From sequence record OR525702.1: a stretch of DNA of 64,000 bases. The stretch is one strand, 5' to 3'. Position numbers and translations under genes: made by a program. The notes under the pieces are model-generated. The model ran no database searches and was not told the DNA's origin. It saw nothing but the letters and a program-made list of their open reading frames with translations. Positions 3,749-7,534 of this stretch are shown in pieces; position 1 is the stretch's first letter; every line of letters begins with the position of its first letter. This DNA is from Escherichia phage vB-Eco-KMB23.

Positions 3749-3881
3749 AGTTTTGTGAAAAATTTTTTAAAAAGTTTTGGGGAATTCTAGGGCAAGGAGG
3801 GGAAATTAAAGGATAGGATAATATATTATAAAGGGTAGAAACTAAATGATGCCTAGAGAGGCCTGGAAAGGCCTAGATACC

Positions 3882-3910
3882 AAAAAGCCCCAACCTTTTG
3901 GTCGGGACTA
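3882..3910 (-). terminator. intrinsic terminator (10-bp stem with G-U pairs, AAAA loop, T-run) downstream of IP-like gene
   Basis: Minus strand reads AGTCCCGACC-aaaa-GGTTGGGGCT-TTTTT. Confidence 0.6.
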
Positions 3911-3916
3911 AGAATG

Positions 3917-4390
3917 TTATTTGATTTGTTTAGCAGACCAAATGCGGTCTTTAATAATTTTTTGGATGTCTTCAACATACTCGAGAGAATGAGCATGTGG
4001 GTTATCTTTAAAGCTATGAGCACGAGCTAGCTTTTGGCCTTCAGTTTTGATTACTAAAAGCTCTTTAAGGATAGCTTCATATTTGGAGATAATTCCTTTA
4101 ACGATATTTTTTTCTTGTGCGACTTTAGGATCTGCTTTAGGAGCAGGTTTACCCGAAGCCTTTGCAAAAGCAGCGCCAGTAGCAACTAAACTTTTCCAGG
4201 CCATACTAACTGCATTTCCCGTAAATCCTTCCGCTTTCATGTCGCGTGCGAACTGGAATCGTGATTCATCAGAAGCATCTTTGTAAGAATATTTACCCGC
4301 TGCAATGGCTGCTTTTGCGACAGCTTGAATTTCGGTGCTAGATGCTTCATTTAACACCGCTTCATTTAAAAATTGAGTATATGATTTCAT
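3917..4390 (-). CDS. internal-protein-like gene with N-terminal capsid-targeting sequence
   Basis: 157 aa; N-terminus MKSYTQFLNEA resembles the T-even IP leader (MKTYQEFIAE-type), which is cleaved by the gp21 prohead protease; late promoter TATAAATA directly upstream. Confidence 0.7.
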   Translation of the reverse strand: MKSYTQFLNEAVLNEASSTEIQAVAKAAIAAGKYSYKDASDESRFQFARDMKAEGFTGNAVSMAWKSLVATGAAFAKASGKPAPKADPKVAQEKNIVKGIISKYEAILKELLVIKTEGQKLARAHSFKDNPHAHSLEYVEDIQKIIKDRIWSAKQIK

Positions 4391-4430
4391 CTTATTTCCT
4401 GTTTTAATTCGTGGTTTTAATATACTACTA

Positions 4431-4438
4431 TATTTATA
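4431..4438 (-). promoter_or_regulatory. late promoter TATAAATA for IP-like gene
   Basis: Plus tatttata = minus TATAAATA, about 40 nt upstream of ATG at 4390. Confidence 0.6.
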
Positions 4439-4440
4439 CC

Positions 4441-4471
4441 AAAAAGCCCCAACCTTTCAGTCGGGGCTAAG
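4441..4471 (-). terminator. intrinsic terminator (AGCCCCGACT-gaaa-GGTTGGGGCT + TTTTT)
   Basis: 10-bp stem incl. G-U pairs, GAAA tetraloop, followed by T5 on minus strand. Confidence 0.6.
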
Positions 4472-4479
4472 CCTTGCGG

Positions 4480-4770
4480 CAACCTTGTCGGGGTTCCACC
4501 TGCTAAGGCAAGTGTTTGTACGAAACGCCGGGATTCGAACCCGGTTATTAAGTAGTTGACGCTACTCAATATTTTAAAAGGCCATATCTCGACCATATCC
4601 GAACGTTCCGTCAAAAACGCTACTCGGTTTACGGCAAACATATTTCCTCGAATCGATAATTCGGTGCGCCGTTTCTGCTGTGATAGTAAAGAGCCAGAAC
4701 ACAGTAAAACTGTGGGAGGAAACTATACTCCAGGGAACATCAGTCCGACGACTTACCGGTAGCGACCCGG
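4480..4770 (-). ncRNA. candidate structured small RNA region with tRNA-like T-arm
   Basis: No credible ORF; T-arm-like CCGGG-TTCGAAT-CCCGG at 4528..4544 (minus); small hairpins; sits between tRNA-Arg-proximal gene and terminator. May correspond to a T4 small stable RNA locus, not verified. Confidence 0.35.
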
Positions 4771-4774
4771 TTTC

Positions 4775-5125
4775 TTAGTATTCTTTTAAAGCATCAACCT
4801 GTTCACGACGTTTACGCCATAAATCAATTACTTCATACGCAGATTCAGCATTTCGAATTGGACGGCATTTATATAAAGACTTGTGATTTTGATATTGTGT
4901 AGATAACGGAATTTTATCTAAAAGGTCTTTACGTTCAAAATATTCGTAACCATCTAAACCAAATGAACGATTTTTGAGAAATTGCCAATGACCAAATTCG
5001 TTTTCGACATAAACATAATCTGCATGCTGATAAAGCAAATTAATTACACGTTCAGAAATAACAGTATCATTATGATTAAAATAGAATGTTAAATCATGAA
5101 CTACTAAATAAACATTACCTTTCAT
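4775..5125 (-). CDS. hypothetical protein
   Basis: 116 aa ORF immediately downstream (minus) of tRNA-Arg. Confidence 0.6.
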   Translation of the reverse strand: MKGNVYLVVHDLTFYFNHNDTVISERVINLLYQHADYVYVENEFGHWQFLKNRSFGLDGYEYFERKDLLDKIPLSTQYQNHKSLYKCRPIRNAESAYEVIDLWRKRREQVDALKEY

Positions 5126-5143
5126 ATTTTCCTCACTTATAAT

Positions 5144-5219
5144 TGGTCGAGGCAGTAGGGATCGAACCTACGACCCAGGACTTAGAAGGTCCTTGCTCTT
5201 CCTTCTGAGCTATGCCCCG
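5144..5219 (-). tRNA. tRNA-Arg (anticodon UCU)
   Basis: Hand-folded cloverleaf: acceptor CGGGGCA/TGCCTCG, T-arm GTAGG-TTCGATC-CCTAC, anticodon loop CT-TCT-AA, encoded CCA. Confidence 0.8.
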
Positions 5220-5223
5220 TAAT

Positions 5224-5299
5224 TGGGGTGACCGATGGGAGTCGAACCCATGACTACGAGAATCACAATCTCGAGTTCTACCAACTGAACTACGGCCAC
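5224..5299 (-). tRNA. tRNA-His (anticodon GUG)
   Basis: Acceptor GTGGCCG/CGGTCAC, D-arm TAGTTCAGTTGGTAGAACT, anticodon loop TT-GTG-AT, discriminator C, CCA encoded. Confidence 0.75.
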
Positions 5300-5413
5300 A
5301 TTAATACCTACTCCAACAATCATGATGTCTTCACACGAAATTAAGAGAAGAGTGATCAGTTCAACCCCTATAATCGCGTCAAGTAGATATTAATGTGACA
5401 GTTGTCACAAATT

Positions 5414-5488
5414 TGGCGGACGTGATAGGATTCGAACCTATAACCAATCGCTTAACAGGCGATCGCTCTGCCATTGAGCTACACATCC
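5414..5488 (-). tRNA. tRNA-Asn (anticodon GUU)
   Basis: Acceptor GGATGTG/CACGTCC, T-arm ATAGG-TTCGAAT-CCTAT, anticodon loop CT-GTT-AA, CCA encoded. Confidence 0.75.
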
Positions 5489-5492
5489 AAAT

Positions 5493-5579
5493 TGGTGGGG
5501 AGTGGTGGAGTCGAACCACCCGAGTCGCAATGACAATGGATTTACAGTCCACACCGCTACCTCTACGGGATAACTCCCC
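5493..5579 (-). tRNA. tRNA-Tyr (anticodon GUA), long variable arm
   Basis: 87 nt; acceptor GGGGAGT/ACTCCCC, anticodon loop CT-GTA-AA, long variable arm, T-arm GGTGG-TTCGACT-CCACC. Confidence 0.75.
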
Positions 5580-5591
5580 TAATTCATAATT

Positions 5592-5666
5592 TGGTGGCCC
5601 TGGGTGGAATTGAACCACCATCTGGCGATTATGAGTCGCTTGCTTGAACCTTCCAGCTACAGGGCC
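5592..5666 (-). tRNA. tRNA with CAU anticodon (Met, or Ile if lysidine-modified)
   Basis: Acceptor GGCCCTG/CAGGGCC, anticodon loop CT-CAT-AA, T-arm GGTGG-TTCAATT-CCACC. Confidence 0.75.
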
Positions 5667-5667
5667 T

Positions 5668-5743
5668 TGGTGCTGATTGACGGAATCGAACCGCCGACCT
5701 TCTCATTACAAGTGAGTTGTTCTACCTACTGAGCTAAATCAGC
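5668..5743 (-). tRNA. tRNA-Thr (anticodon UGU)
   Basis: Acceptor GCTGATT/AATCAGC, anticodon loop CT-TGT-AA, T-loop TTCGATT. Confidence 0.75.
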
Positions 5744-5748
5744 AAAAC

Positions 5749-5838
5749 TGGCGGAGGCGATAGGATTTGAACCTATGAGTCGCCGGAGCGACTGCCGGTT
5801 TTCAAGACCGGTGCATTAAACCACTCTGCCACGCCTCC
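5749..5838 (-). tRNA. tRNA-Ser (anticodon UGA), long variable arm
   Basis: 90 nt; acceptor GGAGGCG/CGCCTCC, anticodon loop CT-TGA-AA, long variable arm, T-arm ATAGG-TTCAAAT-CCTAT. Confidence 0.8.
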
Positions 5839-5844
5839 AAATAT

Positions 5845-6495
5845 TTATATATTGTTAATTTGATTTAGAATTCTTTTTGCTTGAGTATGACTTACACCAA
5901 TATGCTTAGCATATTTAGATAATTCACCACGTTTAGAAAAATCATATAATTTAGAAATTTCTATTCTTCTTTTTCTTTCATCCGCAGAAACTTTTGATTC
6001 GTTTGCTTTTGCTATTTTACGTTTAGCTTCTTGAGAATGAGTTTTACCAGCAAAGCCATTCTTCATTAATCCATTTGAAGACCATCCTTTTAATTTTCCG
6101 TTAGAATGTGCCTTTTTAACACCCAATGAAATTAATTCGCGTTGCTGATCTGTCATAGGATAATTATTTATATGATCCCATCCACCTTCACCGCCGAGTT
6201 TTAAATTATACACATCTGGTTTATTTAAAAACTCTTCTGTGACAATATTTTTCTCAGCTTCAAGCATAGATTCTTTATCATCAAAATACTCTAATATTTC
6301 TTTAGAAAAATTTTCTATACCATATTTATCTTGGGCTCTTTTTAATAATTTACCAGAACCCATATATCCATCATCTAAATTTTCGGTAGAATGCACACCA
6401 ATATAAATTTTATTATTAATTTTATTTGTTATTTTATAAAGATAAAAATGCATATCAGTCCCTAATAAAGAACTGAGCGTCTCACGACGAGTCAT
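5845..6495 (-). mobile_element. segB: GIY-YIG homing endonuclease (segB-like) embedded in tRNA array
   Basis: 216 aa; N-terminal YKITNKINNKIYIGVHST...GYMGSG matches GIY-YIG motif; gene sits 6 nt from tRNA-Ser and 5 nt from tRNA-Gly. Confidence 0.8.
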
Positions 6496-6499
6496 AAAT

Positions 6500-6573
<74 letters not shown>

Positions 6574-6578
6574 AAATT

Positions 6579-6665
6579 TGGTGCGAGAAGTGGGACTCGA
6601 ACCCACAAGGAAATCATTCCGCAGCATTTTAAGTGCTGTGCCTTTACCAATTTGACCATTCTCGC
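6579..6665 (-). tRNA. tRNA-Leu (anticodon UAA), long variable arm
   Basis: 87 nt; acceptor GCGAGAA/TTCTCGC, anticodon loop CT-TAA-AA, T-arm GTGGG-TTCGAGT-CCCAC. Confidence 0.8.
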
Positions 6666-6666
6666 G

Positions 6667-6739
6667 CTGGGAATAAAGGACTCGAACCTTTGCATCCTGG
6701 AATCAAAATCCAGTGCCTTACCAACTTGGCTAATTCCCA
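6667..6739 (-). tRNA. tRNA-Gln (anticodon UUG), CCA not encoded
   Basis: Acceptor TGGGAAT/ATTCCCA, anticodon loop TT-TTG-AT, T-arm AAAGG-TTCGAGT-CCTTT. Confidence 0.8.
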
Positions 6740-6836
6740 ATTATTAACAAAGGCTCTTAAGCAAGAACCCTTGATGATAGAGGGTATTAATCAGTGCGGT
6801 ATGAGTTAATAATAACAAATAATTCTTAAAGCATAT

Positions 6837-7121
6837 TTACCATTTATGATACGTATTTACGATGCATTCAAGACTTAAAGGATTCTTGAAAATATCATAT
6901 TCAAGAGGACCTTTTTCTGTTTCAATAAAGAAATCAAAATTTACTGTATTAAATTTACGGTCTTCCTTCACTAATTTAACCTGAGAAGATGAACGGTCAA
7001 TGTAAACCTTTTCAACTTCAAAACATGTTAAAATGCCATAATCATCAATCAAGGCTTTAGCTGCTTCTTGATCATATTTATATCCATTTTCAATGGACGA
7101 TACTTTAGCATAAAGAATCAT
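6837..7121 (-). CDS. hypothetical protein
   Basis: 94 aa ORF upstream (minus) of tRNA array. Confidence 0.55.
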   Translation of the reverse strand: MILYAKVSSIENGYKYDQEAAKALIDDYGILTCFEVEKVYIDRSSSQVKLVKEDRKFNTVNFDFFIETEKGPLEYDIFKNPLSLECIVNTYHKW

Positions 7122-7123
7122 TG

Positions 7124-7534
7124 TCAGCCTCTATCAACGATAGCATGAGTATGGGCATTTACGATTTGCCACCAGTCGAAACGATTGAAACCATAATCTG
7201 GTTTATTTTCATTTTCTTTAATGATATCACGCAGCTTATCTTCTGTTTCAGCATACGCAATTAAATCATCATATCCACCACAAGGGTAATAATTATCACC
7301 TGCGAATAAAAGAAAATTTACCTTAGATGGATTTACATAATAATGGTCTTTAGGATATTTAGTTCCTCTCCAATCAGTTACTTCAACATAACGGTAAGAA
7401 AATCCATTTTTACTTTCAATCCAACTCCACGCTTCAAAAGGAGTATTAAAAACTTTATCAGGTATTAAATTACCTTCAAAATGAGAAGGATTTGCATAAT
7501 CCCCAGCATAAACATAATATTCGTTAATACTCAT
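7124..7534 (-). CDS. hypothetical protein
   Basis: 136 aa ORF, adjacent to next gene by 1 nt. Confidence 0.6.
   Translation of the reverse strand: MSINEYYVYAGDYANPSHFEGNLIPDKVFNTPFEAWSWIESKNGFSYRYVEVTDWRGTKYPKDHYYVNPSKVNFLLFAGDNYYPCGGYDDLIAYAETEDKLRDIIKENENKPDYGFNRFDWWQIVNAHTHAIVDRG

Follow-up and report, generated by a model that had tools for sequence, protein, structure and literature searches.

Few RNAs in molecular biology have been orphans for as long as the species 1 and species 2 RNAs of bacteriophage T4: species 1 RNA was reportedly sequenced in 1975, early studies of RNase E and RNase III made classical use of the species 2-species 1 precursor as a substrate, and the role of both RNAs has stayed open for about fifty years. 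In the T4 record NC_000866 they are annotated as "rnaD, small stable RNA; species 2 RNA" (71053..71171) and "rnaC, small stable RNA; species 1 RNA" (70908..71046), immediately 3′ of tRNA-Arg. The segB study described a primary transcript of about 1.75 kb that gives rise to eight tRNAs and to the species I and II RNAs and that ends downstream of the species I gene, and it called the tRNA/species I-II region non-essential (PMC2330249). A 2022 omics study reported RNAC and RNAD as late RNAs "of yet unknown functions" on the basis of RNA sequencing and of northern blotting with an RNAC riboprobe, and its authors named rnaC and rnaD "small regulatory RNAs" (PMC9697503). Most recently, a 2025 evolution experiment in which a T4-like phage was adapted to a semi-permissive E. 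coli found a single convergent single-nucleotide polymorphism (SNP), in rnaD, in all lines (PMC12685909). Here we compare with these RNAs an interval of about 370 bp (4400-4775) in Escherichia phage vB-Eco-KMB23, within a 64,000-nucleotide (nt) stretch of record OR525702.1 (the window). An initial annotation, made from the letters of the window, had marked the interval as a candidate locus for small stable RNA.

Counterparts of T4 rnaD and rnaC

The minus strand of the window aligned to T4 rnaD and T4 rnaC in the gene order of T4. The initial annotation had suggested an equivalent of the T4 small stable RNAs, and the interval indeed aligns base for base with rnaD and rnaC. We conclude that the interval holds the counterparts of T4 rnaC and rnaD, an identification that we regard as virtually certain. 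Such a pair is expected for a T4-like phage and is already known, and the locus itself adds nothing new. Our reading, to which we assign a probability of about 0.9, is that the interval would be the 3′ end of a tRNA transcription unit, that stable rnaD and rnaC would be cut from the tRNA precursor, and that rnaC would be tRNA-shaped. The features of the locus are as follows.

5144-6739, minus strand: ten tRNA genes, directly upstream of the interval (ARAGORN, Rfam).
4778..4663, minus strand: rnaD homolog (species 2 RNA), ~116 nt (alignment to NC_000866 71171..71053).
4662..4657, minus strand: 6-nt spacer GAAUUA (AAAUUA in T4) between rnaD and rnaC (alignment).
4656..4519, minus strand: rnaC homolog (species 1 RNA), 138 nt (alignment to T4; covariance model).
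4518..4469, minus strand: 3′ trailer between rnaC and the terminator (sequence comparison).
4468..4445 (stem-loop) and 4444..4440 (U tract), minus strand: intrinsic terminator, closing the tRNA/rnaD/rnaC transcription unit.
4438..4431, minus strand: TATAAATA late-promoter motif of the internal-protein-like (IP-like) gene, not part of the RNA locus.

All features near the interval are carried on the minus strand, including the tRNAs, an open reading frame (ORF) at 4775..5125, and the IP-like gene at 3917..4390. The window copy of rnaC aligned with T4 rnaC at 138 of 139 positions and differed at four (C18G, G29A, U66C, and one A fewer in the junction). It is a full-length ortholog that, as in T4, lies on the strand of the tRNA genes, follows rnaD after a 6-nt spacer, and is the last RNA before the terminator; the downstream neighbor differs, being e.8 in T4 and an inserted IP-like gene in the window. 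A covariance model built from homologs scored the window copy at 150 bits (E value, 1.8e-36), and searches with that model returned one rnaC match per phage and no second copy.

The window comes from a T4-like phage, and the interval shares 99.7% identity with Escherichia phage ECP52. It was matched by 812 phage records, 678 of which cover at least 80% of it, and some of the matching GenBank records carry an rnaC annotation. Public records are inconsistent at this site: most are empty, a few read "rnaC," and others overlap the interval with "tRNA-Lys," "tRNA-Trp," "tRNA-Phe," "tRNA-Asn," or "hypothetical protein." Many genome records, in other words, leave rnaD-rnaC unannotated or misannotate the pair as tRNA-Lys or hypothetical proteins.

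Structures of rnaC and rnaD

The structure of rnaC was analyzed with a comparison set of 24 distinct homologs from five named Tevenvirinae genera (Tequatro-, Mosig-, Winkler-, Karam-, and Kanagawavirus) and uncultured phages. The sources were T4, T4_ev151, JS09 (Mosigvirus), Kc304 (Winklervirus), EcL8g, VPA32, myPSH1140, and UFV01 (Karamvirus), PEi20 (Kanagawavirus), and contigs from IMG/VR and metagenomes. A hand-drawn model, the RNAalifold consensus of the 24 homologs, and the minimum free energy (MFE) fold of the window copy alone all indicated that rnaC is a four-way junction. The MFE of the window copy was −46.4 kcal/mol (z score, −3.72), and its fold was the consensus fold. The arms of the junction are as follows.

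4649..4655 (5′ strand, CGAUUCG) and 4521..4527 (3′ strand, CGUUUCG), minus strand: P1, acceptor-like stem, 7 bp (covariation, RNAalifold).
4528..4544, minus strand: T arm, CCGGG-UUCGAAU-CCCGG, with a 5-bp stem directly adjoining the P1 3′ strand.
4546..4571, minus strand: P4, a 10-bp hairpin in the anticodon-arm position, with the 6-nt loop CGUCAA at 4556..4561.
4580..4648, minus strand: long arm P2-P3, ~70 nt, in the D-arm position, with the apical loop UUGACG at 4609..4614.

Covariation supported each of these arms. In the MAFFT alignment, 91.8% of cells were paired and 20 pairs were double-changed, compared with 8.0 ± 1.6 in shuffled and 2 to 5 in slid controls. In the model-based alignment, 91.6% of cells were paired and 25 of 48 pairs were compensatory, compared with 9.4 ± 1.8 in shuffled and 3 to 8 in slid controls; this alignment was fitted to the model structure, so that its counts lean toward it, a bias not shared by MAFFT and RNAalifold. 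The P1 consensus was CGRUUCG on the 5′ side with CGUUYCG on the 3′ side, in which two central U.U mismatches were invariant and the third pair (4/138) was AU in 13 homologs, GC in 11, and broken in none. The middle pair of the T stem was GC in 15 homologs, UA in 8, AU in 1, and broken in none. P4 showed compensatory changes in 7 of its 10 pairs, with 97.5% of cells paired, and the long arm (helices 3 and 4 of the model-based alignment) showed them in 16 of 23 pairs. Moreover, VPA32 and PEi20 kept the helices of the long arm although the sequence of its middle was entirely different. The covariation check proposed in the initial annotation thus strongly supported the structure of rnaC across relatives. 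We conclude with good confidence that rnaC folds as a four-way junction, as shown by covariation.

The T arm of this fold is the T-arm-like element that the initial annotation had reported on the minus strand. It was found exactly at 4528..4544 (plus strand, CCGGGATTCGAACCCGG; minus strand, CCGGGTTCGAATCCCGG), inside rnaC. When GGTTCGAATCC was searched for with up to one mismatch, the window contained eight copies, all on the minus strand and seven of them inside called tRNAs, compared with 0.64 copies expected by chance; no shuffled sequence reached eight. A canonical tRNA (RF00005) and rnaC share the order of four helices in a cloverleaf, a 7-bp terminal stem set against a 5-bp T stem, the loop UUCGAAU, and the tRNA slot in the genome. 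They differ in that rnaC has no D arm and no 7-nt anticodon loop, with an arm of ~70 nt in the D position and a conserved hairpin of 10 bp and a 6-nt loop in the anticodon position. The acceptor-like stem of rnaC contains two conserved U.U mismatches, and no CCA is encoded, the annotated 3′ end in T4 being ...CGUA. Since both an anticodon loop and an encoded CCA are lacking, decoding or charging of rnaC is unlikely. A degenerate tRNA had been offered in the initial annotation as an alternative, and of that idea the part that holds is that the T-arm element belongs to a tRNA-shaped RNA, though rnaC is not a decoding tRNA.

A tRNA gene was nevertheless called here, as ARAGORN placed a tRNA-Lys at 4518..4611 on the minus strand, and the interval might accordingly be read as a genuine but unusual 94-nt tRNA-Lys(UUU) with a long variable arm. 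In favor of this, the T arm has the canonical form, CUUUUAA looks like the anticodon loop of a tRNA-Lys, and one GenBank record labels the homologous site tRNA-Lys. In the ARAGORN drawing, however, only one pair of the D stem is Watson-Crick, and two positions of the anticodon stem are mismatched. The acceptor stem of the drawing showed no compensatory change and was A.C-mismatched in 9 of the 24 homologs, whereas the competing P1 covaried. The "UUU anticodon" was not conserved in other genera, and ARAGORN made no call on the homologs in seven other loci. The Rfam tRNA model (gathering threshold, 29 bits) had no match in 4519-4778 with E up to 10, while nine upstream tRNAs scored 59 to 74 bits; likewise, the Kc304 homolog of rnaC had no match to it with E up to 1, while a neighboring divergent tRNA scored 36 bits. 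We reject the ARAGORN call as spurious on the covariation and on the Rfam tRNA result, and a tRNA-Lys here is extremely improbable.

The Rfam scan proposed in the initial annotation was run on 3800-7200 with E up to 10 and produced no family match in the interval, its only matches being the upstream tRNAs and chance matches. A tRNA-type acceptor/T-arm module mounted on a body that is not a tRNA occurs in the tRNA-like domain of tmRNA, in the bacterial Y-RNA-like YrlA, and in the MALAT1 mascRNA, where it leads to tRNA-type processing or protein recognition. The likeness of rnaC to these RNAs is one of concept only, with no similarity of sequence or model, and rnaC has neither the tag ORF of tmRNA nor the Ro-binding stem of YrlA. 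ARAGORN found no tmRNA in the window, and the Rfam tmRNA_permuted model gave only a 13.6-bit chance match over true tRNAs. The YrlA model (RF02553; threshold, 69 bits) gave only 22.9 and 17.7 bits, again over true tRNAs and none in the interval.

The pattern of substitution also bears on whether the interval might code for a small protein, or for several, as the "hypothetical protein" annotations imply. Mechanical ORFs of 74 amino acids (4417..4641, minus strand) and 68 amino acids (4556..4762, plus strand) are present, and several GenBank records put hypothetical proteins over the match. Neither ORF matched Pfam, and among 11 homologous loci the ORFs varied in strand, frame, position, and length, with one homolog having no ORF of at least 35 amino acids. 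Moreover, insertions and deletions of one and two nucleotides occurred inside the ORF span, and the substitutions followed the pattern of paired RNA helices. The statement in the initial annotation that the interval has no credible ORF therefore agrees with the absence of Pfam matches and of conservation, and we give a coding function next to no weight.

Whereas rnaC was nearly unchanged from T4, rnaD was conserved at its ends and replaced in its center. Over the 116 nt that aligned, the 5′ ~40 nt and the 3′ ~25 nt were identical to T4 rnaD or nearly so. The two share a 5′ domain of two small hairpins, the 3′ tail ...AUCACAGCAGAAACGGCGCACC, and a place immediately 5′ of rnaC; the central ~45 nt form a different hairpin in the window. 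At least four unrelated sequence versions of this central hairpin exist among relatives, the hairpin being retained by compensatory changes. RNAalifold analysis of 16 homologs indicated a 5′ hairpin, RCCGG-GUCGCUA-CCGGY, in which one pair was AU in 8, GC in 6, and GU in 2, and short helices, one of which showed a U-A to A-U swap. It also indicated a long-range stem, GUCGUCG/CGGCG-C-AC, that closes the molecule one nucleotide from its 3′ end. The proposed covariation check was thus favorable in part for rnaD, as the first and central hairpins covaried and the closing stem, being invariant, gave no covariation.

Among the relatives' loci compared, rnaD was confined to Tequatrovirus and Mosigvirus; in other genera its place is occupied by a tRNA. 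The rnaC covariance model had no match to rnaD. An acceptor/T-arm module was sought in rnaD by eye and by folding, and the sole resemblance to a tRNA was a loosely CCA-like 3′ end, ...GCGCACC(A/G/U); we do not claim rnaD as a tRNA-like RNA. A 6-nt complementarity between GAAACG of rnaD and CGUUUC of the rnaC 3′ strand was likewise dismissed, being expected by chance for RNAs of such sizes. A 116-amino-acid ORF (4775..5125, minus strand; phrog_3355; no Pfam match) separates tRNA-Arg from rnaD, with no counterpart at that position in T4, and its end, including the TAA stop (4777..4775), overlaps the first 4 nt of the rnaD homolog. Because this upstream ORF replaces tRNA-Arg as the neighbor and its stop lies inside the start of rnaD, the rnaD 5′ end may form differently than in T4.

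Homologs of rnaC appeared to be confined to Tevenvirinae phages, as neither metagenomes nor 185,579 GTDB genomes of bacteria and archaea yielded one outside that group. Pattern scans for distant rnaC (four of IMG/VR and one of metagenomes) gave only T4-like phage contigs plus chance matches, and the scan of GTDB genomes gave chance matches only, with no phage contig and no bacterial homolog. No loop variant of rnaC turned up in the IMG/VR, metagenome, or GTDB pattern scans. Chance matches from the genome scan and from the last viral scan were excluded with the covariance model, by which 17 GTDB loci scored at most 19.6 bits and the loci L083 to L085 had no match; those from the metagenome scan, judged by sequence only, were GC-rich and lacked the conserved 5′ motif TTCGAGGA.

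Processing and possible roles

The position of rnaC in other phages indicates how its ends might be made. In EcL8g and VPA32, the order is tRNA-Trp, 5 to 6 nt, rnaC, 5 nt, and tRNA-Gly; in locus L006, it is tRNA-Met, 5 nt, and rnaC; in locus L023, tRNA-Met, 5 nt, rnaC, 6 nt, and tRNA-Gly; and in Kc304 and locus L009, rnaC, 8 nt, and tRNA-Trp. Overall, in Karam-, Winkler-, and related phages, among them a ~175-kb group, rnaC begins 5 to 6 nt past a tRNA CCA and ends 5 to 8 nt before the next tRNA. These distances match those that ordinarily separate tRNAs, which makes it likely that the tRNA-processing machinery forms the ends of rnaC, and tRNA-type processing of rnaC is the option that we favor somewhat, given its genomic context. 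In Kc304 (MZ348424), an unannotated divergent tRNA that ARAGORN missed lies 5 nt upstream of rnaC (L003:1431-1502; Rfam tRNA, 36 bits); it has the T loop AUCGUUA, an odd anticodon loop, GCCUGAA, and the 3′ end ACCA, and the same element is present in L009.

We propose that transcription of the unit would stop at the terminator 4468..4445 and that rnaD and rnaC would be excised from the polycistronic precursor of the tRNAs and would then build up as stable non-coding species. In this scheme, rnaC would be tRNA-derived, its paired mature ends forming an acceptor-like stem stacked on a canonical T arm, and this acceptor/T-arm module could let the host tRNA-processing machinery set the ends of rnaC and give it tRNA-like stability. 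In genomes where rnaC follows a tRNA, RNase P would generate the rnaC 5′ end; the 3′ end would be trimmed by exonucleases. In T4-type phages, RNase E would instead cut the GAAUUA spacer; GAAUUA and AAAUUA are putative matches to the RNase E motif, RAUUW.

Two loops of rnaC suggested a further element of structure. The long-arm apical loop UUGACG and the P4 loop CGUCAA were identical in 24 of 24 homologs, while the neighboring stems changed, and UUGACG was kept even in VPA32 and PEi20 despite wholly different stems. Each loop is the perfect reverse complement of the other, and structure prediction leaves the two of them unpaired and accessible; the chance probability of a perfect 6-nt match among three hairpin loops is roughly 1e-3. 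Their complementarity, together with their invariance beside freely changing stems, suggests a loop-loop contact, and a kissing interaction, within one molecule or between two, is a tentative possibility to which we give a little less than even odds. Within the proposed mechanism, the loops would probably kiss to lock rnaC into a compact fold.

The invariant loops may be viewed in another way, namely, that rnaC and/or rnaD are base-pairing regulatory small RNAs that target mRNAs of the host or the phage in trans via their loops or tails. Conserved unpaired segments are indeed present (UUGACG, CGUCAA, and the rnaD 3′ tail CAGAAACGG), the label "small regulatory RNAs" has been applied (PMC9697503), and the convergent rnaD SNP arose during host adaptation (PMC12685909). 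The two invariant 6-mers complement each other, however, which favors an internal or dimer contact, and both the placement in a tRNA slot and the acceptor/T module are untypical of Hfq-type small RNAs. We consider regulation by base pairing to be quite unlikely.

The reading of rnaD and rnaC as stable RNAs cut from a tRNA precursor leaves room for a role of rnaC as a tRNA mimic. Finished rnaC might, speculatively, bind or titrate a tRNA-recognizing host or phage factor, and we judge such a mimic or decoy role doubtful, at something under one chance in five. A fuller version, which we think still a little less likely, is that rnaC is no relic but a purpose-built mimic in a tRNA slot, whose acceptor/T-arm half would recruit proteins that process or bind tRNAs, whose kissing loops, within one molecule or between two, give a nuclease-resistant fold, and which serves as a decoy or titrator for a tRNA-directed host factor, with rnaD as a partner that tunes host range. 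The factor may be, for example, a tRNA-cleaving defense nuclease or a processing enzyme. In that version, rnaD would be a partner specific to Tequatrovirus and Mosigvirus, as hinted by the convergent rnaD SNP, which is itself a hint of a host-specific role (PMC12685909). The comparative model, with its tRNA-shaped junction, tRNA slot, complementary loops, and possible T-loop/GG contact, makes function more directly testable.

Several points weigh against our reading or parts of it. The "biological roles are unknown" for the species 1 and 2 RNAs (PMC3014915). Covariation cannot support the kissing contact because neither loop ever varies, and bringing together the ends of a ~26-bp long arm and a 10-bp hairpin would need a sharp bend. 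The T loop was the non-canonical UGCAUKC in 3 of the 24 homologs (L003, L006, and L015), so that a strict T loop is not universally required. The C18G change in window rnaC (4639) puts a G.G mismatch into the long arm where the remaining 23 of the 24 homologs all have a C-G pair. For rnaD, the closing stem cannot be tested by covariation because it is invariant, and the single-sequence fold was unexceptional (z score, −0.24). The three homologs with the unusual T loop were also the sole rnaC sequences with CG for GG before CCU in the P2 3′ strand of the long arm, and this coincidence may reflect a tertiary contact like that between the D-loop GG and the T loop of tRNA, an association resting on one or two evolutionary events.

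The unexceptional folding of rnaD and its hypervariable center could also be explained if the interval were a decaying tRNA pseudogene plus the spacer before a terminator, giving only a read-through transcript, an RNA without selected function. Even the variable center of rnaD, however, retains its hairpin by compensatory changes, and in T4 each of the two RNAs builds up as a discrete, stable species, rnaC at about 140 nt (PMC9697503). Moreover, conservation of rnaC in five named genera, compensatory change in 25 of its 48 pairs, and its invariant loops argue that rnaC is under purifying selection on structure and not in decay. We conclude that decay is a very improbable account of the interval.

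Terminators and neighboring genes

A strong terminator had been noted near 4441..4471, and a minus-strand intrinsic terminator was found there, at 4468..4445, consisting of AGCCCCGACTGAAAGGTTGGGGCT with 10 pairs followed by TTTTT. In T4, a homologous terminator element follows rnaC. The initial annotation had spoken of paired terminators; the minus-strand member is real, and the plus-strand element at 4755..4771 is not a terminator of the transcribed strand. We reject the latter because its sequence is simply the first rnaD hairpin read on the opposite strand. The 4445-4468 terminator does have a true twin beyond the IP-like gene, at 3877-3912, which forms with 4436-4471 a 36-nt direct repeat that is 92% identical and of which each copy is a minus-strand intrinsic terminator. 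Between rnaC and the terminator, the trailer contains a hairpin, CACUUGC-CUUA-GCAGGUG, at 4497..4514; sequence comparison indicated that the 3′ trailer is conserved in Tequatrovirus and absent in genera that have tRNAs after rnaC.

The IP-like gene (3917..4390) matched phrog_2280, and the N terminus of its product, MKSYTQFLNE, resembles the T4 internal-protein targeting sequence. It looks like an inserted cassette because it is flanked by the duplicated terminators and because T4 has e.8 directly after the rnaC terminator. Its TATAAATA motif (4431..4438) lies 41 nt upstream of the ATG, and the window contains 24 matches to that motif, compared with 9.55 expected. Further TATAAATA motifs occur at 5842-5849 and 6165-6172, near or in a GIY-YIG/NUMOD3 homing-endonuclease ORF (5845..6495, minus strand; phrog_314) that is located within the tRNA cluster, with tRNA-Gly on one side and tRNA-Ser on the other. 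Also within the cluster, a gap of ~115 nt between tRNA-His and tRNA-Asn (5300-5413) has no tRNA call and no significant Rfam match.

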